From contig NC_073391.1 of assembly GCF_028641065.1 (NCBI RefSeq), positions 32,550,001 through 32,614,000 of the forward strand: 64,000 bases of DNA. The letters are read 5' to 3'. Source of the stretch: Leucoraja erinacea (lineage: Eukaryota). Shown one piece after another: positions 3,171-64,000 of this stretch. The notes beneath the pieces were generated by a model. It was not told the DNA's origin, made no database searches, and worked only from the letters and a program-made list of their open reading frames with translations. Positions within the stretch are counted from its first letter, which is position 1. Each line of letters opens with the position of its first letter. A program made the translations under genes and the position numbers.

Positions 3171-3592
3171 GGGTTATATACTGTTGCAACAAGTTGCATA
3201 TGCCCGCGTGTTGCGGGTTATATACTGTTGCAACATGTTGCATATGCCCGCGTGTTGCGGGTTATATGTTGTTGCAACGCCAGCGTGTTGCGGATTATAT
3301 ACTGTTGCAACGCCAGCGTGTTGCGGGTTATATACTGTTGCAACGCCAGCGTGTTGCTGATTATATACTGTTGCAACGCCAGCGTGTTGCGGGTTATATA
3401 CTGTTGCAACCAAAGATCTTAGTTGGTTGCAACGCCAGCGTGGTATCAATTGTAGCAACGCCAGCGTGTTGCGGGTTATATACTGTTGCAACGCCAGCGT
3501 GTTGCGGATTATATACTGTTGCAACGCCAGCGTGTTGCGGGTTATATATTGTTGCAACGCCAGCGTGGTATCAATTGTAGCAACGCCAGCGT
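3171..3592. repeat. 33-bp minisatellite
   Basis: Unit GTTATATACTGTTGCAACGCCAGCGTGTTGCGG, about 12 imperfect copies, each with the palindrome GTTGCAAC. Confidence 0.93.
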
Positions 3593-3646
3593 GATGTGCA
3601 GTGAAGGGACAACATGGAAAAATATTCATGGCATACTCGTTCATAT

Positions 3647-5157
3647 ATTAAGGGAGCGCACTGTCTGGGGGAGGGGGTATTGAGGGAGCGCACTTTGGTA
3701 TTAAGGGAGCGCACTGTCTGGGGGAGGGGGTATTGAGGGAGCGCACTGTCTGGGGGAGGGGGTATTGAGGGAGCGCACTGTCTGGGGGAGGGGGTATTGA
3801 GGGAGCGCACTGTCTGGGGGAGGGGGTATTGAGGGAGCGCACTGTCTGGGGGAGGGGGTATTGAGGGAGCGCACTGTCTGGGGGAGGGGGGGTATTGAGG
3901 GAGCGCACTGTCTGGGGGAGGGGGTATTGAGGGAGCGCACTGTCTGGGGGAGGGAATATTGAGGGAGCGCACTGTCTGGGGGAGGGGGGTATTGAGGGAG
4001 CGCACTGTCTGGGGGAGGGGGTATTGAGGGGAGCGCACTGTCTGGGGGAGGGGGTATTGTATTGAGGGAGCGCACTGTCTGGGGGAGGGGGTATTGAGGG
4101 AGCGCACTGTCTGGGGGAGGGGGTATTGAGGGAGCGCACTGTCTGGGGGAGGGGGTATTGAGGGAGCGCACTGTCTGGGGGAGGGAGTATTGAGGGAGCG
4201 CACTGTCTGGGGGAGGGGGTATTGAGGGAGCGCACTGTCTGGGGGAGGGGGGTATTGAGGGAGCGCACTGTCTGGGGGAGGGGGCATTGAGGGAGCGCAC
4301 TGTCTGGGGGAGGGAGTATTGAGGGAGCGCACTGTCTGGGGGAGGGGGCATTGAGGGAGCGCACTGTCTGGGGGAGGGGGGTATTGAGGGAGCGCACTGT
4401 CTGGGGGAGGGGGCATTGAGGGAGCGCACTGTCTGGGGGAGGGGGTATTGAGGGGGAGCGCACTGTCTGGGGGAGGGAGTATTGAGGGAGCGCACACTGT
4501 CTGGGGGAGGGGGTATTGAGGGAGCGCACTGTCTGGGGGAGGGGGGTATTGAGGGAGCGCACTGTCTGGGGGAGGGGGCATTGAGGGAGCGCACTGTCTG
4601 GGGGAGGGGGTATTGAGGGAGCGCACTGTCTGGGGGAGGGGGCATTGAGGGAGCGCACTGTCTGGGGGAGGGGGTATTGAGGGAGCGCACTGTCTGGGGG
4701 AGGGGGGTATTGAGGGAGCGCACTGTCTGGGGGAGGGGGTATTGAGGGAGCGCACTGTCTGGGGGAGGGGGGGGTATTGAGGGAGCGCACTGTCTGGGGG
4801 AGGGGGTATTGAGGGAGCGCACTGTCTGGGGGGAGGGGGTATTGAGGGGGAGCGCACTGTCTGGGGGAGGGGGCATTGAGGGAGCGCACTGTCTGGGGGA
4901 GGGGTATATGAGGGAGCGCACTGTCTGGGGGAGGGAGTATTGAGGGAGCGCACTGTCTGGGGGAGGGAACATTAAGGGAGCGCACTGTCTGGGGGAGGGA
5001 GTATTGAGGGAGCGCACTGTCTGGGGGAGGGAGTATTGAGGGAGCGCACACTGTCTGGGGGAGGGAGTATTGAGGGAGCGCACTGTCTGGGGGAGGGAGT
5101 ATTGAGGGAGCGCACTGTCTGGGGGAGGGGGGTATTGAGGGAGCGCACTGTCTGGGG
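3647..5157. repeat. ~32-bp G-rich minisatellite between CUTC and COX15
   Basis: Unit TATTGAGGGAGCGCACTGTCTGGGGGAGGGGG, roughly 47 copies. Variation is mostly in G-run length. Confidence 0.97.
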
Positions 5158-5351
5158 GTGTGACGCTTCATAATGCCGCTAATAATGTAGCGCTCCTTCA
5201 AATCTCCCCCTCCCCCCGTCACGTGTCCCGGACCGTCGCCCCCGTCACGTGCCCGTGGGACTGGGCACCGGGCAGTATGACGGGCTGTGATTGGCCGTCT
5301 AAGCGTCCGCGTCGCGGAGTTCACCCTTGACCCGAGGCGCCGGCGGAGGTG
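5158..5351. promoter_or_regulatory. CpG-rich proximal promoter/5' UTR of COX15 (possibly bidirectional with CUTC)
   Basis: CpG-dense. Contains two GTCACGTG E-boxes (~5218, ~5244), a TGACG half-CRE and a reverse CCAAT (ATTGG ~5290), directly upstream of the ATG. Confidence 0.6.
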
Positions 5352-5417
5352 ATGCTGCTGTTGCTGGGGCTGCGGAGACTGAGCGGCGGCGGCGGTGGCG
5401 GTGGTAGCGGTAGCGCG
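5352..5417 (+). CDS. COX15: COX15 heme A synthase exon 1 (mitochondrial targeting peptide)
   Basis: ATG CTG CTG TTG...GCG|gtgagt encodes MLLLLGLRRLSGGGGGGGSGSA. It is 66 nt, phase 0, and in frame with exon 2. Confidence 0.8.
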
Positions 5418-5809
5418 GTGAGTGGGGAGAGAACAGGTGGGGATATATGGGGTGGATAGGGAAGAGGTATTTGGGGGTACATGGGGTTGGGGTGGTGGGG
5501 GCGAGAGGACAGGGAAACCAGAGGGTATATGTGGTGGTGGAGGGGATGTATGGGGTAGCCGGGGATGGAGAGGGAGTAGGGATGGGATGGGAGGAGAGGG
5601 GGTAGACGTGAGCTAGACTTCAACTCATTGCAACGTGGAGGCTGTGGGCCTGGAACTCAGTTTTCCTTTCCCCTGGCTCAGTCTGAAGAAGGATCTCGAC
5701 CTGAATTATCACCTATCCAACAGGTTGTGCTGGAGGGGGGTTTCTTCCAACACCTAAAGTTTTCATCAGGGTACAGTCCCGGACCCCTAGCATGATCTGC
5801 CTTCAAAAG

Positions 5810-8140
5810 TCCACTCAAAGATTAGACTCTTTGCAGATTATTGTATTCTCTATAATAAAATACCATCCATGGAGGATTCGGAGAGACTCCAACCAGACCT
5901 TGATGCTTTCGTCATATGGGAAGGAGATTGGCAGATGTCTTTCAATTCTTCTAAGTGCTTCAGTATGAGAGTCACCCACAGCAGGAATCCGGTTACAATG
6001 ACGTACAAGATGGGGCACTCCACCCTGGAAGAGGTGAAACATCATCCCTACCTGGGAGTAGAACTGTGTGGCTAGGTTCAGCTCCAATTCAATAATTAAG
6101 TTTGCTGATGACACTGTGGTGGTGGGCCTGATCTCAGACAATGATGAGAAGGCCTACCAGGAGGGAGCTGGCTGGGATCTAGTCCGGGGAGGGGGTGCCG
6201 GGAGCGCATCTAGTATGAGGGAGCGCACAGGTCTGAACAGCCTGGGGGAGAATGGGTCCTGGGGGGTGAGGGGGTATTGAAGGAGCGCACTGTCTGGGGG
6301 GAGGAGGGACGTACTTAGGAGGGCACTGTATCAGGGAGGCACTGTCTGTACACTCCATTGAGGGAAATGTCTGGGGGAGGGGGTATTGAGGGAGCGCACT
6401 GTCTGGGGGAGGGAGTATTGAGGGAGCGCACTGTCTGGGGGAAAGGGGAACATTAAGGGAGTGTCTGGGGGAGGGGGTCTTGAGGGAGCGCACTGTCTGG
6501 GGGAGGGAGTATTGAGGGAGCGCACTGTCTGGGGGAGGGGGAAGTATTAAGGGAGCGCACTGTCTGGGGGAGGGGGTATTAAGGGAGCGCACTGTCTGGG
6601 GGAGGGGGTATTGAGGGAGCGCACTGTCTGGGGGTAAGGACGCTTCATAATGCCGCGCCTTGTACCAGCTCCTTCAAGCGCATTGAGGAAATTCAGGGAG
6701 TGTCGCCCCGAGGATCCGTCGCAGTCACGTGTCTGGGACTGGGCACAGCAGCTGTGTGGCCGTCTAAGCGTCCGCGTCGCGGAGTTCACCCTGTCCGAGG
6801 CGCCGGCGGAGGAGTGATGCTGCTGTTGCTGGGGCTGCGGAGACTGAGCGGCGGCGGCGGTCAGGCGGCGCGGTGAGTGCCAAGGGATATATGGGGTGGA
6901 CAAGAGGTATTTGGGGGTACTGTGAATGGGGTTGGGGTGGTGGGGGCGAGAGGACAGGGAAACCAGAGGTTATATGTGGTGGTGGAGGGAGGATGTATGG
7001 AGAGTAGGCGTTCGGGATGGAGAGGGAGTAGGGAACTGGGGGAGGAGACCCCATTGCAACGTGGAGGCTGTGGGCCTGGAACTCAGTTTTACCTGCTCAG
7101 TCAGAAGGTGAACTCGAGAGAAATCCAAAGGTTCATGGGGGACCTTCTTCCAACACCTGCAAGTTTCATGTTGAGGTTCCACTACGGTACAGTCCTGGAA
7201 CCCCTCCGTTGCCACGCAAAAGAACGGAGAGGTTTGAGAAGGAGTTTCTTTGCAGAGGCAATTCGGACTGTAACCGCCTTTCTTACTAGGGACTAACTCT
7301 ACAGAATGTTTTTCTTTTTATTATTTATTATGTAAAATAATATGTGTGTTATGATTGTGTTTATAATTTGTTTGGTTGTTTTGTTGTTCCGCGAGCATTG
7401 CCACTTTCATTTCACTGCACATCTCGTATGTGTATGTGACAAATAAACTTGACTTGACTTGACTTAACTTAGCAGTGATTTGAAATGGTCTACTCACATC
7501 AACCAAACAACCGCCAAGGCTAACAGAATTCTGCGATTGCTGAAGAGATATATTTATTATTGAAACAACAGAACCAAGTCTAGCCTACAAGACTCTGATA
7601 AGACCCAAACTTGTGTATTGCTCTGCGGCCTCGGATCGACAACACAAAACACATGGGGACAAGTTAGAAAGAATTCAAAATAGAGTTGCAACGTTTACCA
7701 TTGGTGATTACAGCAAGGAGTCCAGTATCACTAAAATACTTGCTGATCTAGAGTGGGGAAACTCTTCAAGACCGTAGGACCAAATTACGCCTGATGACCA
7801 TCTATAAAGAAACGCACGGGTTTATTCCAAACAACCTCATGAGTCATCTTCAATCTACAAATTCATCCAGACAACCAAAGACCAGGCAATCGGTGGTTTT
7901 CATTCCAGCAAGTCAAGACTGTTATAGGTGTTCACTGTACCCAAAGACAATTCGCTAATGGAATCATCTCCACCATGACATTCACAATGTACCTGACGTC
8001 CAGACCTTCAAGACCAAGTTGGAAACAATCGATATTAAGACGCTGACTTCTAAGGCCCACTTTAATATTTAATTGTGACTTTGCACATGACCCTCGACAA
8101 CCAGTGATGGTGATTATACGTCAAGATACAGATACAGATA
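5810..8140 (+). mobile_element. Old CR1/L2-group LINE RT fragment interrupted at ~6066-7469 by a Rex1/Babar insertion and duplicated COX15 sequence
   Basis: ...LQPDLDAFVIWEGDWQMSFNSSKC...HPYLGVEL stops at 6065 and resumes as SSDLKWSTHINQTTAKANRILRLL at ~7470, ending in a (GATACA)n tail. The insert starts with Rex1-like IIKFADDTVVVGLI and ends with AATAAA(CTTGA)n. Confidence 0.7.
6817..6872 (+). pseudogene. COX15: Second, out-of-phase copy of COX15 exon 1
   Basis: ATGCTGCTGTTGCTGGGGCTGCGGAGACTGAGCGGC...CG|gtgagt is 56 nt (phase 2), which is incompatible with the phase-0 exon 2. The flanks duplicate ~4900-5790. Confidence 0.6.
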
Positions 8141-26371: not shown

Positions 26372-26614
26372 TGATGAAACGAGGCCAGGTGGAGATGGGG
26401 AGATATGGCGAGATGAGGGGCAGATGACGGGGAGGTTAGACCAGACGGAGAAGAGGCTAGTGAAGATGGTACAAGAAACCAGTGGGTGAGTGTAGGTGAG
26501 GCGCAGCTGGTATATGTTGCCAGTGTGGGCAAGTTGGGCCGAAGGACCTGTTTCCACACAATATCATTCTATGACAAAATGGCTCAATGGTTCCACTCAT
26601 CTCTCTCTCTGCAG

Positions 26615-26967
26615 CACCTTCACAACAAGTCTCAGAGGGTCGTTTCAAGCCGCTGCGAGGTGAACTTCAGCCGCACCAGACTCACCGAGCTGTATCCAAG
26701 GAAAGCTCTTGGCAGCGTCCCGGTCTTTGTGGGACGGGGCTCGACCTCACTCCCGGGCGGCGGGAGGTACGAGCCACCCTTTGGGTTCAGAGGATGCGAG
26801 GAACAGCTTCGGGAAACCCTGGAGATGCTGCCGGAAGCTTCTGGAGGGATTCCCGGCGAGGAGCTGGCGCTGTCTGGCTGCAGGAGATGCGTGGTGGTGG
26901 GGAATGGAGGCATCCTGGGCGGAAGCCGGCTCGGACCGTACATTGACCAGCACAGCGTCGTTATCAG
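26615..26967 (+). CDS. st3gal7: ST3GAL5-related sialyltransferase (GT29), stem and start of sialylmotif L
   Basis: YEPPFGFRG...CRRCVVVGNGGILGGSRLGPYIDQHSVVIR. The family call is firm, while the paralogue name is inferred from divergence from ST3GAL5 and from synteny. Confidence 0.85.
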
Positions 26968-27642
26968 GTGACCGCACCACCAGCAGTCTCAGCTCTTGGG
27001 CAGCGTCAGTGATGCAGCCCTTGAGTCTGTAGAGGCATGGAGTACATGGAGCCCCTTGAGTCATGGAGTCCATGGTTGGAGACCATGGTGTCCATGCAGT
27101 TATATGCCATGACTCAACTCATTCGGCCCAACTCATTCATACTGACCACGATATCCTGTCTAAGCTTCTCTCTCCCACTTGCCCACTTCCCTTTAAACCT
27201 TTCCTATCTGTGTGCCTGTTCAAATATCTTTTAAATGCTGTTAGTCTACCTGTCTCAACTACCTCTTCTGGTAGCTCATTCCATTTACCGACCACCCTCT
27301 GTGTAAACAGGTTGCCCCTCTGGTTCCTATTAAGTCTTCCCCCCCTCTCACCCTAATCCTGTGGTCTCGAGTTCTTGATTCTCCTACTCTGGGTAAAAGA
27401 CTCTGTACATTCACCCCATCTATTCCCCTCAAGATTTTATACACCTCTTTCAGATCCCTCATCCTCCACATTCACTCTATCCAGGCCTTTCACTATTATA
27501 CATTCAACTTTATCAAGGCTTTTCACAATTCGTAAATTAGATTGATTTATATTAATATAAAGGTTTATTAAAAGAAGTGCAAGCTTGTGAAATGTTCTTG
27601 GTGACGGAGATTTTCTCTCTCACCCTCCTCCCGCATCATCAG

Positions 27643-42734: not shown

Positions 42735-43773
42735 CTGCCAGTAAAGAAATCAAATGCACTTCTTAGTAGTCACAACAACATGAGGTTAAAGTTGTGAAAG
42801 GCTCCAAGTACAGCCTTCTGCAAGGGGTTGGATACAATCTCGGAACACATTCACCCTACTTTAGACTTTACTTTAAACTTTAGAGATACAGCATGGAAAC
42901 AGGTCCTACAACCCACCGAGTTCGTGCCAACACCATCTTACACACCTGCCGCAGTATGCAAATTATTGAAAGGCTGGAAATAAGGTGAATAAGTTCTGAG
43001 ATTTTATCCAACCCTTGCAGAATGCTCTGCTTTGACCCTGGCAGCACCGTGGCGCAGCGGTAGCAATGCTGCCTTACAGCGTCATTGAGCCGGGTTCGAT
43101 CCAGACTATGGATGTTGTCTGTACAGAGTTTGTACGTTCTGAAACCATGTGTGTGTTTTCTGTGGGTGCTCCGGTTTCTTCCCACACTCCAAGGAAGTGC
43201 AGGTTTGTAGGTTAATTGGCTTCAGTAAAAATTGTAAATTGTCCCTCATGTGTAGGATAGTGCTCATGTACGGGGTGATCACTGGTTGACCCCGTACACT
43301 CTACCGCTGTACCTTACGCACTGTACCTCTAAAGTAAAATAGTAGCAGGATTCTGCCACCATGTTTGAGTTTCAGAAGCTGCAATTGTTGTGCTTTAGAT
43401 CAAGACAGGGTCTATCAAACCTGCACTAACATTCAACAGCTATGTTCCCTGTCCATCAAACAAGACAAATCCCCCTTGCATCGACTCCATCTACACCTCA
43501 CTCTGTCTTGGCAAGGCCACCTGCATAATCAAGGGCCAGTCTCACCCTGGTCACACCTGCTGCTCCCACCAGGCAAGAGGTACAAAAGTGGAAAGCACAC
43601 CTCCAGATTCAAGGACAGTTTCGTCCCAGCTGTTATCAGGCAACTGAACCATCCTATCATCAACTAGTGAGGAATCCTGACCTACCATCTACCTCATTGG
43701 AGACCCTTGGACTATCTTAAATCGGACTTTACTTTGCAGTAAACATTATACCCTCTATCTGTATCTATACACT

Positions 43774-43901
43774 CCTTCTTCTTGCGTATGGCGTACACAG
43801 CCTAAAGTTGTAGGACAACTTGTTCTATTAATTGTGCACGCCGGGTTGATTTCATTCATCGAAACAGGGCGGACCACGTGAAGGTTGCAATCTCCCACCC
43901 C
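43774..43901 (-). mobile_element. 128-bp retroposon with 5' HDV-like ribozyme fold and (GAA)n tail
   Basis: 11-bp TSD ATCTATACACT at 43763-43773 and 43902-43912. The 3' end is GCCATACGCAAGAAGAAG. Confidence 0.85.
43848..43901 (-). ncRNA. HDV-like ribozyme fold (catalytic C apparently mutated to U)
   Basis: P1 GGGGUGG/CCGCCCU, P2 GAUUGCA/UGAAAUC (1 mismatch), P3 ACC/GGU, L3 UUCACGU, minimal P4, J4/2 UGAA. Confidence 0.75.
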
Positions 43902-44003
43902 ATCTATACACTGAGGGTGGCTTGATTGTAATCATGTATAGTCTTTCTGCTGACTGCATAGCACGCAACAAAAAACATTTCACTGTACCTCGGTACATGT
44001 GAC

Positions 44004-44055
44004 GGGGTCAAGGAGAGAGCGTTCACGTCGTGGCCCTGTTTTCACCAATCTTTCC
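44004..44055 (+). ncRNA. HDV/CPEB3-like ribozyme fold
   Basis: P1 GGGGUC/GGCCCU, P2 GGAGAGA/UCUUUCC, P3 GCG/CGU, L3 UUCACGU, J4/2 CCAA with the catalytic C retained. Confidence 0.75.
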
Positions 44056-44172
44056 ACCACCACGCACAAGAAGCGCAAGACAGACACCATTGTATAAAGA
44101 TGCCGAGAAGTGTGTTCAGCTGTCAGACTGAACATCTTCTAATCTTGTGTGTGGACTCGACAAGAAGAAGGG
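44004..44172 (+). mobile_element. ~169-bp retroposon with 5' HDV-like ribozyme fold and (GAA)n tail
   Basis: 9-bp TSD ACATGTGAC at 43995-44003 and 44173-44181. The element ends GACTCGACAAGAAGAAG. Confidence 0.85.
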
Positions 44173-44413
44173 ACATGTGACAATAATGAACCAAACTAAA
44201 TTTAAATTAGTGAACCTGTGACAAGTAATACACAAAATCGCAACATCTAAATATAGTTAACTGTCATGATCAGGAGGTAAATTAAACTATTTGCAGCTTC
44301 AGTAACTCAAACATGATGGAAGAATTTATGGCCGAAGTCATGGTTTCGAAGAGGAATTGCCCAAAAGTGCACAAGATATGTACTAAAGGTAATTATCGTT
44401 AAGTTATTCTTAC

Positions 44414-59780: not shown

Positions 59781-62735
59781 CTGAAGAAGGGTCTCGACCC
59801 GAGACGTTGCCTATTCCTTCTCTCCAGAGATGCTGCCTGTCCCGCTGAGTTACTCCAGTATTTTGTGTCTATCTTCACCCCAATGTGTTAATTGTTTCAT
59901 TTAGAGATACAACGCGGAAACGGGCCCTTCGGCACCGAGTCAGCGCCGACCAGTGGATATTTTTAAGGCAGAGATAGATAGATTCTTGATTAGTACGGGT
60001 GTCAGAGGTTATGGGGCAAAAGTACGAGAATGGGGTTAGGAGGGAGAGATAAATCAGCCACGAAGGAATGGCGGTGTAGACTTGATGGGCCGAATGGCCA
60101 AATGCTACTCCTATTCCTTAGGGACACTATCCTGCAGAAGGGATAATTTACACTTATACCAAGCCAATTAACCTACATATCTGTACATCTTTGGAGTGCG
60201 GGAGGAAACCGAAGATCTTGGAGGAAATGCACGCGGTCACGGTGAAGAACATGTAACTCCATACAGACAGCACCCGTAGTCAGGATTGAACCCGGGTCTC
60301 TGGCGCTATAAGGCAGCAACTCTACTGCTGCGCCACCATGCCGCTCAGACACCTTTGATTTCGGAACCAGGGGACACAGTTTAAGAATAAGGGGTAGGCC
60401 ATTTAGAACTGAGATGAAGAAAAACTTTTTCACCCAGAGGGTTGTGAATTTGTGGAATTCCTTGGTACCACCAGCAAAATCTCTGTAAACTTCACCCAAC
60501 ACATTTGCAGTGTCATATGGAGACACGAGGAACTGCAGATGCTGGTTTACAAAAAAGACACAAAGCGCTGGAGTAACTCAGCAGGTCAGGGAGTTTTTCT
60601 TGAGAACATGGAAAGGTGACGTTTTGGTTCGGGACCCTTCTTCAGACTGACTGCGGCGGGGGGAGGGAAGGCAGGAAGAAAGCTGGAAGAGAGGAGGGGC
60701 AGGACAAAACGTGGCAGGTGATAGGTGGTGCCGCGTGGCAGACTGGTGCCGTGCTTATCCCCCGATAGCAGGTCCTGCTCGCCCGCCGCGGAGCCAGGTA
60801 ACCTGTCCACAATGGTTCTTTATTATCACGTGAACAGGTACAGTGAAATTATTTTTTGCATATAGTTCAGTGAAGTATTGCTGTACACAAGCAAAAATCC
60901 CAGATTTGTTTTAATTTTTTTTAGAGATACAGTGTGGAAATAGGCCCTTCGGCCCACCGAGTCCTCGCTGACCAACAGTCACTACACTCGTTCTATTCTA
61001 CACACTAGGAACAATTTGCAGAAGGTAATTAACCTACAAACCTGCACGTCTTTGGGATGTGGAAGGAAAACAGAGCATGAGGAGGAAATCCACGCGGTCA
61101 CAGATAGAGCATGCAAATTCCGTACATGAGGCCAGGCGCCGACGCCACAAAATGGTCAACCCCAACAGCAACTCACTCCCCAATCCAATGGCCAGAGACA
61201 ACTTCACCTTTGACTTTGACTTTGAGGGACTGACTGTCACAGATAGGCCTAGTCAGCTACAGCAGGAGATGCAACCAGACTTTAGAGATGCAGCACAGAA
61301 ACATGCCATTCGGCCCAACGAGTTTGTGCCGACCAGCAATCACCCCAAACGCTAGCATTATCCTACACACTAGAGACAATTTTTACCTAAGCCAATTAAC
61401 CAACAAATCAGCACATCTTTGGAGTGTGGGAGGAAACTGGAAAACCTGGACAAAACCCACAGGGAAAACGTACAAACTCTGTACACGCAGCGCCTGTAGT
61501 CCAGATCAAACCTGGGTATCTGTGCTGCAAGGCAGCAACTCTACTGCTGCGCCACTGTGCCGCCCCAAGAAGCACAGATGAACATTCCCCACCTCATGCA
61601 GGACAATGTCAAAGCCCCAGCACCATCTCTCGCCGATGCACGGGTGCCAACTCTACTCTTCCCTTGTCAAGGTGAACGGGACTAATGATCTCGTTGGCGA
61701 TCTTGATGCATCATCTTGATCCAAAGTGTTCTTATGCCCCAACAATTAACATGGCCAAGCCTGTACATACTAATGGCGGTGCAGGCTCGAAGGGCCGAAT
61801 GGCTTACTTCTGCACCTATTTTCTATGTTTCTATGTTTCTAAGTTCAGTGCAGCTTGTGATCATTTTTTGTACGTATAAAACTTCTTAAACACCATTACC
61901 GTATCTGCCTTCATGACCACCCCTGGCAGTGCGTTCCAAGCACCTATCTCCCTCTGCCCCACGCATCTCCTTAAAATTTTGCCCCTCTCACCTTAAAGCT
62001 GTGCCCTCTAATATTTGATTTGTTTCCATGTTGGGAAAAAGGTTTAGACAGTCTACCCTATCTATGCCTCTCATAATTTTATATACCTGTCAGGTCACAT
62101 GCTCCAACAGACAAAGGAGAAGGGAGGACAAAGAGGAGAAGACAAAATTAGAGAGAGAAGACATGGAAAAGGGCATAGAGGACACATCAAGCCAGCTCAC
62201 CAAACACTGGATATGGTGATTCGACAATACAACTGTGAACTAGGCACAAGAAACTGCAGATGCTGGAGTCTTGCATAAAACACAAAATACTGGGATAATG
62301 AAGCGGGTCAGGCAACATCTTTGGAGTATACGATCCATTACCATAAGACCATTGGAGCAAAATTAGGCAATTCAGCCCATCGAGTCTGCTCTGCCATTCG
62401 ATCATGGCTGATCCATTTTCCTGCCCTCCCCATAACCTTTGACGCCTTTCCTAATCAATAACCTGCCAACATCTGCTTTAGAAATACCCAATGACTTGGC
62501 CTCCACTATCATCTGTGTACTTCAGACTCTGAAGATAGGTCCTGACCCAAAACATTGCCTATGCATGTCCTCCAGAGGTGCTGCCTGACCCGCCAAATTA
62601 CTCCAGCACTTTGTGTTCTAAAACAAAGGAGCTATGTGGTCTCATGGTTTTGCAGAACCATTTATGGAATATTTTTGAGAAGCTATACGGTGGGTTTCTA
62701 CTGATCTTTCTACACAGCTCTCTCTGTGCCGAGCT

Positions 62736-62905
62736 TCATTTCTTAGCTTTGCCCTGGGCTGCTACGGCAGCCATGGCTGCCTGCACTGTCTCCTCATCTC
62801 CCAGGAACTGCATGGGCTTGACTGGCTTCAGGTTCTTGTCGAGCTCGTACATGATGGGGATTCCCGTCGGAAGGTTCAGCTCCATGATGGCTTCCTCGGA
62901 CATGC
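62736..62905 (-). CDS. PGAM1: Phosphoglycerate mutase 1, last coding exon
   Basis: ctgcag|GC ATG TCC... encodes [55 protein letters not shown]. 170 nt. PGAM1 is preferred over PGAM2 from sequence and 10q24 synteny. Confidence 0.92.
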
Positions 62906-64000
62906 CTGCAGATCAAAGGGAAAGACCACGGCATCAGGAACAACCCTCCATTCACCTTCCCAAACCTGCCATAGAGCCTTACAGCATGGAAACAGTCCAT
63001 TCGGCCCCACGCATTCAAAATGTCCCATAGGTGGCGCAGCGGTAGAGCAGCGGTTGCTGCATCACAGTGCCAGAAACCCGGGTTCGACCCTGACTATGGA
63101 TGCTGTCTATACGGATAGAGTGTGGAAACAGTCCTTCGGCCAACTGAGTCCACGCCAACCAGCGATCACCCCGTATATTAGCACTATCATACACACTAGA
63201 AACAATTTATAATTTTACCGTAGCCAATTAACTTATAAATCCTGTACATATTTGGAGTGCTCGAGGAAACTGGAGCATCCAGAGAAAACACACGTGGTCA
63301 CAGGGAGAACGTACAAACTCCGTACGGACAGCACTTTTAGACAGGATCCAACCTGGATCGACCGCTGCGCCACTACGCTACCTGAGTTACTCCAGCATTT
63401 TGTGTCCCCAGCACAGTGGCCTTGAATAAGGGTTGAAAAGAATGCGGCAACTCGCAAACTACAAAGAGCTTTAAGAACTTTTCACATGGAGAAAGTTATA
63501 GATTTTCAATGTTATTTTTTGCACCGGGAATTGCTCCTGACATCAGGCTGATGCAGTCTTGCCCTAGAAGAAACTCCACAGAGGAAATAATTTGTCTATG
63601 TCTTTTGAATCATTCAGTTACCTCAAAGGACCTCAGGTGGATCACTGCTTAATCTTCTAGACTTAAGGCAATTTATATCCTCATTAAATAATTCTTTAAT
63701 CTAATCGTGCATTCCTCCAAGGAGAATATGTCCTTGTTGTAATCCAACACCCATACACTCAATGCACTATAAATGGTCTTAGTTTAGTTTAGAGATACAG
63801 CACAGACGTAGTATGTCCTCGCCAACCATCGATCACCCATCAACGCTAGTTAATTGTAAGCAAAAATGTGTCAATGTGCAGAACCGCACCAGGACCAGTG
63901 TGAAGCCCTGCATTTTTGGGAAGTCAAACTAGGGCCCTGAAAGTGTTGTCGAGCAGGTACACTGTTCCCTGTAAGTGGCGTCACAGGTAGATAGGATGAT

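Follow-up and report, generated by a model that had tools for sequence, protein, structure and literature searches.

Bipartite LINE derivatives with an HDV-like ribozyme at the 5' end are known, and include NARTc (from L1Tc), RIME (from Ingi), the R2 SIDEs and internal deletions of Vingi-1_EE (PMC5786205, PMC4035085). The ribozymes free elements from co-transcripts, among them intronic RTE and Baggins elements (PMC6765202). For the heads of SIDER and NARTc both active and inactive forms have been reported (PMC4035085), and a change of C to U at the first base of J4/2 inactivates HDV-like ribozymes (10.1101/2023.06.13.544163).

The family described here, F1, resembles NARTc, RIME and the R2 SIDEs in consisting only of the 5' and 3' ends of a LINE, in having no ORF, in its target-site duplications (TSDs) and 5' HDV-like fold, and in sharing a genome with its parent. 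It is unlike them in residing in a vertebrate, in counting at least 5,454 copies of 127–138 nt, and in a ribozyme that is almost without P4. The CPEB3 ribozyme is conserved, single-copy and retains its catalytic C, whereas the F1 insert at the present locus is decayed and belongs to a mobile family with many copies. Both have an HDV-like fold in sense orientation within a vertebrate intron (PMC6765202). The drz-Mtgn-1 and theta ribozymes share with the F1 head a nested double pseudoknot, a C as first base of J4/2 and an absent or vestigial P4; they were found in metagenomes and gut phages, beside tRNAs, whereas the predicted F1 ribozymes head a vertebrate retrotransposon (10.1101/2023.06.13.544163).

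The insert lies in a window of 64 kb (the window being the whole stretch of DNA that was analysed). It is a real, decayed member of F1, which is itself a new instance of the known internal-deletion LINE derivatives. We are confident that it is a likely inactive, non-coding derivative of a LINE of likely Vingi type, with a predicted minimal HDV-like ribozyme as its 5' end, in which the C-to-U change at the catalytic position probably reflects neutral CpG decay. The single window copy is ordinary; the interest lies in the family and in the inverted heads found among copies of its parent. The locus has the following features.

42735–44413, minus strand: HPS1-like intron enclosing both elements, phase 0 (..LLTK / VPNS..), from exon fragments and splice sites
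43763–43773, no strand: TSD on the 3' side of the insert, read directly
43775–43901, minus strand: non-autonomous retroposon of family F1, short (127–128 nt) form, from its sequence and the comparison of copies
43775–43813, minus strand: 3' end of the parent LINE, comprising the final codons (..LQL*), a short 3' UTR and the (GAA)n tail; nt 89–127 of the insert align 92% to the LINE 3' end in L316, at the end of the LINE ORF
43824–43847, minus strand: start of the parent LINE 5' UTR, retained behind the ribozyme; nt 1–78 of the insert align 86% to the LINE 5' end in L317
43848–43901, minus strand: predicted minimal HDV-like ribozyme, 54 nt, from a descriptor scan and shuffles
43852, minus strand: second lesion, C to A on the 3' side of P2, which creates a G-A mismatch; the C is kept in 29 of 29 other copies
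43858, minus strand: first base of J4/2 (equivalent of HDV C75); T in the window copy, C in the family
43902–43912, no strand: TSD abutting G1, read directly
44004–44170, plus strand: element of a second family, F2, antisense to the gene, with a 9-bp TSD ACATGTGAC and a 3' end matching a different LINE family

An earlier note on this DNA had described a 128-bp minus-strand insert with an 11-bp TSD and a tail, and both repeats and the tail are present as claimed. On the minus strand the insert runs over 127 bases from G1 at 43901 to the end of its (GAA)n tail AAGAAGAAG at 43775, with one additional base beyond the tail at 43774, and is flanked by the TSD ATCTATACACT at 43763–43773 and 43902–43912. 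The two ribozyme elements lie head to head, 102 bp apart, inside the 3' end of an older, abundant plus-strand repeat (window 43700–44003) that is presumably Rex1-like. Judging by its repeats, the host is presumably a cartilaginous fish.

Minus-strand exon fragments around the insert weakly match Fuz_longin_1, 2 and 3 in that order (E 0.0004–0.047), and all of these matches fall short of the curated cut-offs. The intron has its GT donor at 44413 and an AG acceptor that was read by eye. From what is known of the human protein, we take the gene to be HPS1 instead of MON1 or FUZ. Since intron and insert are both on the minus strand, the insert is sense to this HPS1-like gene, in agreement with the note as far as the longin matches identify it. 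Elsewhere in the window we observed a last exon at 62539–63212 (minus strand) and an exon at 26417–26971 (plus strand), which look PGAM-like and sialyltransferase-like, respectively, and a long tandem repeat array at 3571–6969 that produces repetitive ORFs.

The 5' segments that the note had quoted for P1, P2, P3, L3 and J4/2 were all found in the insert. The predicted ribozyme has a P1 of 7 bp beginning with G1-U (43901–43895/43872–43866), a P2 of 7 bp (43892–43886/43854–43848) and a P3 of 3 bp (43885–43883/43875–43873). L3 is the 7-nt UUCACGU (43882–43876), with a G available for P1.1; P4 has shrunk to U-UUCG-A, that is about 1 bp and a tetraloop, and J4/2 reads UGAA (43858–43855). A double-pseudoknot descriptor with at most 1 mismatch, scanned over the 64-kb window and 60 dinucleotide shuffles of it, gave exactly two sites in the window, at 43901 (minus) and 44004 (plus), and 0 in each shuffle, which rules out a chance fold. 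The window copy fits with 1 mismatch, an intact copy (L063) with 0. An Rfam scan gave 0 matches at the gathering score, so no curated ribozyme family was hit. Minimum free energy folding, which ignores pseudoknots, replaced P1 of an intact F1 copy by an alternative hairpin.

A pattern leaving the four ribozyme CpGs open matched at least 5,454 F1 copies in the genome, and a stricter 34-mer pattern 1,392. They are dispersed, have TSDs and contain no ORF. The commoner form is 138 nt long and carries a 10-nt internal duplication; 108 of 130 sampled copies were scored as this long form. When copies were picked by an internal pattern, 119 of 130 began within 1 mismatch of the G1 head. TSDs, detected in 21 of 30 copies, ended within 1 nt of G1 in 16 of the 21. 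The note's reading of the insert as a retroposon headed by a predicted ribozyme is borne out. Directly before G1 the commonest base is T (41 of 95), and two before it A (35 of 95; loci L061–L090 and L341–L440). This T or A sometimes falls outside the TSD, and could be an untemplated addition or a target preference. F1 copies or heads can also lie close together, with two or three of them within 1–2 kb of each other at several loci (L003:2363–2491, L010:2046–2172 and L281). An origin from a tRNA-, 7SL- or 5S-headed SINE was rejected; the head matches the 5' end of the LINE itself and has no Rfam match.

A query with the last 60 nt of the insert found no LINE in 30 loci, returning the window copy, 28 other full SINE copies and one 5'-truncated copy. 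A pattern excluding the middle of the SINE gave 551 matches, and 16 of the 30 loci fetched from these are 5'-truncated LINE copies whose ORF ends ..CDCGHPDQTIPHIVNDCP..WMSTLDLQL* and is followed by the F1 tail. The C-terminus carries a CxC-x7-H-x4-C motif before WMSTLDLQL*. A LINE-start probe taken from the longest copy led to 27 loci, of which 10 have the F1 head upstream of the endonuclease, about 180 nt from its start. Read by eye, these parental heads have the J4/2 C in 10 of 10 cases and CUAA in 9 of 10. The alignment of nt 1–78 with L317 (86%) identifies the 5' part of F1 as the extreme 5' end of an autonomous-type LINE; its 3' part of about 40 bases is the parental 3' end with the tail. 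An intermediate SINE form fuses the LINE 5' UTR directly to the LINE 3' end (L257, L259, L263 and L269). Sharing both the 5' head and the 3' end with the LINE, F1 is an internal-deletion derivative of it. Among the parent copies recovered none has an intact ORF.

A route by which F1 might spread can be sketched from the fold, the 5' ends and the parent. A copy would be transcribed within host or read-through RNA, and the ribozyme would cut right before G1, freeing the RNA of the unit, as the exact 5' ends and the fold suggest. The APE/RT protein of the LINE would then recognise the shared 3' end of about 40 nt and insert the RNA by target-primed reverse transcription. TSDs of 8–14 bp and a 3' end common to F1 and the parent LINE were observed. 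In a SINE subfamily the parental J4/2 would have changed from CUAA to CGAA, placing the catalytic C in a CpG, and about one in ten copies has lost the C since that change.

Position 43858 is C in 92 of the first 100 listed of the 5,454 F1 matches (a hand count, all from contig C1), and in DNA contigs of related organisms C makes up about 91–92% of the depth. The family therefore reads ...GTTTCGACGAATGCAATC with C where the window copy has T, as the note had expected, and T as the family consensus is rejected. Among the same first 100 listed matches, the first two bases of J4/2 are CG in 42, CT in 31, CA in 15, TG in 7, CC in 4 and GA in 1. The C-to-T change occurs in 105 of the 1,392 copies found with the stricter pattern. 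For copies of CpG type among the first 100 listed, counted by hand, it was seen in 7 of 64 at the catalytic CpG and in 33 of about 290 at the three other ribozyme CpGs (9, 14 and 10; Fisher p = 1.0). This equal rate supports neutral CpG decay, one of the two readings that the note had offered.

The TG copies are about as diverged as the CG copies (median 6.0% vs 6.5%, p = 0.52, the CG sample coming from one contig), and show borderline linkage at two of 13 columns tested (p = 0.03–0.04). The G-to-A change at the same CpG is more frequent (CA 294 vs TG 105). Lower divergence (4.3%, p = 0.001) marks the CA copies as younger, and they share the diagnostic base G8 (40 of 45 vs 18 of 39, p = 1.4e-4); they were therefore propagated. 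Variants of the neighbouring base have spread and variants of the C have not, which suggests that the predicted catalysis is needed for spreading. The C was retained across subfamilies while the next base changed between U, G and A, and this sequence comparison is indirect evidence for a role of cleavage in spreading.

About 6% of a poly(A) RNA run (X24) from a related organism was inspected. Position 43858 is C in 310 of 354 of its reads, and 120 reads cross G1 into upstream flanks. No pile-up of read starts at G1 was seen in this run. In vivo cleavage is hence at most partial, or invisible to a poly(A) library. The RNA reads neither show cleavage nor favour selection against it.

This read-through is in line with a second view of the head, in which the HDV-like fold is kept chiefly for binding a protein, for protection or as an internal promoter, and the minimal form cleaves little. 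Pr77 of L1Tc also serves as a promoter, and little of P4 is left in the F1 head beyond about 1 bp and the tetraloop. Some well-folded SIDER heads of trypanosomatids were inactive (PMC4035085). The retention of the C across subfamilies while its neighbour drifts, the start of F1 insertions at G1, and the activity in vitro of ribozymes without P4 (10.1101/2023.06.13.544163) speak against it, and we regard this view as unlikely.

Slightly less likely still is that the C-to-U change and the P2 mismatch were fixed in this sense copy by selection against cutting of the HPS1 pre-mRNA, as the note had considered. Compared with 29 close copies, the window copy is changed at 43858, 43852 and 43795 and around 43830. 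Of these four to five departures from the family majority, two lie within the 54-nt ribozyme of a copy that is sense to the HPS1-like gene; however, the ribozyme makes up 43% of the element, so that two would be expected there, and the baseline C-to-T frequency of 7.5–11% is equal to that of other CpGs. Reads taken as element-sense in run X24 are fewer than antisense reads at 43858 (151 vs 203), a strand call that assumes first mates to be opposite to the RNA and rests on about one HPS1 read pair. This asymmetry recurs at the end of the neighbouring host repeat (318 vs 472 at 43957), and F2 sense reads are also fewer. Under the same strand assumption, reads taken as sense retain the C more, not less (139 of 151 vs 171 of 203, p = 0.03). 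That one pair covering HPS1 exons is also too little to show a splice.

In the antisense neighbour the C lies in CCAA, without a CpG, and would decay slowly whatever its orientation. The contrast between a dead sense copy and an intact antisense copy is thus accounted for by sequence context and needs no selection. We therefore favour neutral CpG decay after insertion as the probable origin of the change in the window copy. Weak selection against intronic cleavage in sense orientation may still act, and is compatible with the data. Once annotation is available, F1 makes such selection directly testable, with its thousands of natural variants of a predicted 54-nt ribozyme whose catalytic base lies in a CpG.

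The parent is a single-ORF APE+RT LINE, likely of Vingi type, a label resting on domain layout. Its CxC-x7-H-x4-C motif and its RT motifs resemble those of Vingi and not those of RTE. Two protein relatives, P0007 and P0036, have a single ORF near 990 aa in a compact element of about 3 kb, with APE and RT and no RNase H match, and decayed parent copies align in pieces to residues 104–968 of P0007. Relatives in the PDB are only the RTs of L1, R2 and group II introns, and among the relatives retrieved there is no named Vingi, Ingi or RTE reference.

The parent and its relatives agree in these features, and in dispersed insertion, with Vingi elements such as Vingi-1_Acar as described in PMC13708176; the distribution of Vingi is covered in PMC5753468 and PMC3391268. 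The excerpts of PMC13708176 mention neither a 5' ribozyme nor head-inverted insertion for Vingi, unlike the parent, whose clade is read from its domain layout. Membership in the RTE clade, whose single-ORF APE+RT elements have predicted HDV-like ribozymes and bipartite derivatives (PMC5786205), or in Ingi, which carries an RNase H that the parent's relatives do not match (PMC13708176), is improbable given the Vingi-like motifs. With F1 and its parent, the range of predicted HDV-like ribozymes at the 5' end would come to include vertebrate LINEs of likely Vingi type; the Vingi clade is now used for gene insertion (PMC13708176).

The note had proposed at least two ribozyme-headed families, and this holds: F2 is distinct from F1, and several more LINE families have predicted ribozyme heads. 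The predicted F2 ribozyme (44004–44055) has an intact C at 44045 (CCAA) and, by the descriptor, a P1 of 6 bp, not the 7 bp of the insert that had been assumed for it. The note's further claim, that the stems of the two elements differ in sequence and keep their pairing, stands between families and fails in one detail, since the insert itself has the P2 G-A mismatch at 43852. Compared side by side, the heads of F1, F2 and LINE families B and D differ in the sequences of P1, P2 and P3, yet each stem pairs and J4/2 begins with C in all of them; the changes between families look compensatory.

In a search for the F2 parent, a first exclusion pattern gave SINE variants only and a second gave LINE fragments in 2 of 23 loci. 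The 3' end of F2 is common to another LINE of the same type (L152 at 530–1574, L177, L178, L221 and L222), whose ORF ends ..YNKDVEKCVQLWLDNI*. Its 5' end was not found in the loci of this genome that were examined; in the relative P0036 the reading frame continues through an F2-like head at the N terminus. The F2-parent fragment also served for an RT search, and among the 70 loci examined from it none was the F1 parent. Teleost fish have relatives of this LINE that are 70–75% identical over 112 aa, high enough to raise the question of horizontal transfer.

At least four further LINE families have HDV-like heads with a long P4 (L205:327(-), L208:368(-), L239:374(+), L220, L240, L206 and L210–L212). 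In families B and D, full-length members have complete heads in which P4 is long and the stems differ in sequence but pair. Family B is young and has open frames of up to about 790 aa; in family D, L3 is UCCUCGU and the tail (CGAA)n. Of 20 LINE loci tested, the descriptor picked out heads in 4, with one more doubtful match (L214); it did not recover those of families C and E, which were read by eye only.

Second-strand synthesis is very poorly understood, according to the abstract of PMC6895275, and copies of the F1 parent may preserve in the genome what happens to the 5' end during this step. Among 53 truncated copies (13 from the fetched parent loci and 40 LINE-type rows chosen among the first 100 of the 551 listed matches), 16 have the ribozyme head inverted at the 5' junction (L248, L250, L252, L265, L266, L274, L280–L282, L284, L288, L290, L293, L297, L309 and L312), and one has an ordinary internal inversion. 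The inverted pieces cover about nt 1–110 of the parent. Of the 16, 15 could be placed on L317; their outer edge is at nt 71–109 in 14 and at 193 in one, and a bounding TSD was found in 10 of the 15, one of them weak. In the other families inverted heads were seen in 0 of 20 (B), 0 of 4 (C), 1 of 12 (D; L229) and 0 of 6 (E), with some junctions lying outside the fetched DNA.

In the 5' inversions that L1 forms by twin priming, the inverted 5' piece usually abuts the truncation point. The parent copies are alike in combining, within a single TSD, an inverted 5' piece with a 3' piece in forward orientation. They are unlike L1 in that the inverted piece is the first 70–110 nt of the RNA, 100 to 2,700 nt away from the start of the forward piece. 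Several inverted heads include 5' UTR found only in the LINE, so that the template was likely LINE RNA. We infer that the inverted heads arise by a second priming event just behind the ribozyme.

A wider model can be offered tentatively, although we think it has a somewhat better chance of being wrong than right. The LINE protein would hold the 5' ribozyme head at the target, and the upstream DNA end would prime just 3' of the ribozyme and copy it backwards, giving the inverted heads (16 of 53) and the derivatives that keep both ends. The head itself would be an active minimal HDV ribozyme of 54 nt at thousands of vertebrate loci, its catalytic C under selection during spread. A literature search found no paper on the F1 and F2 families, on Vingi ribozymes or on head-inverted insertions, a result that does not establish their absence from print. 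At seven LINE-start loci the F1-type tail is inverted upstream of the LINE start, which suggests that longer inverted 5' pieces also occur.
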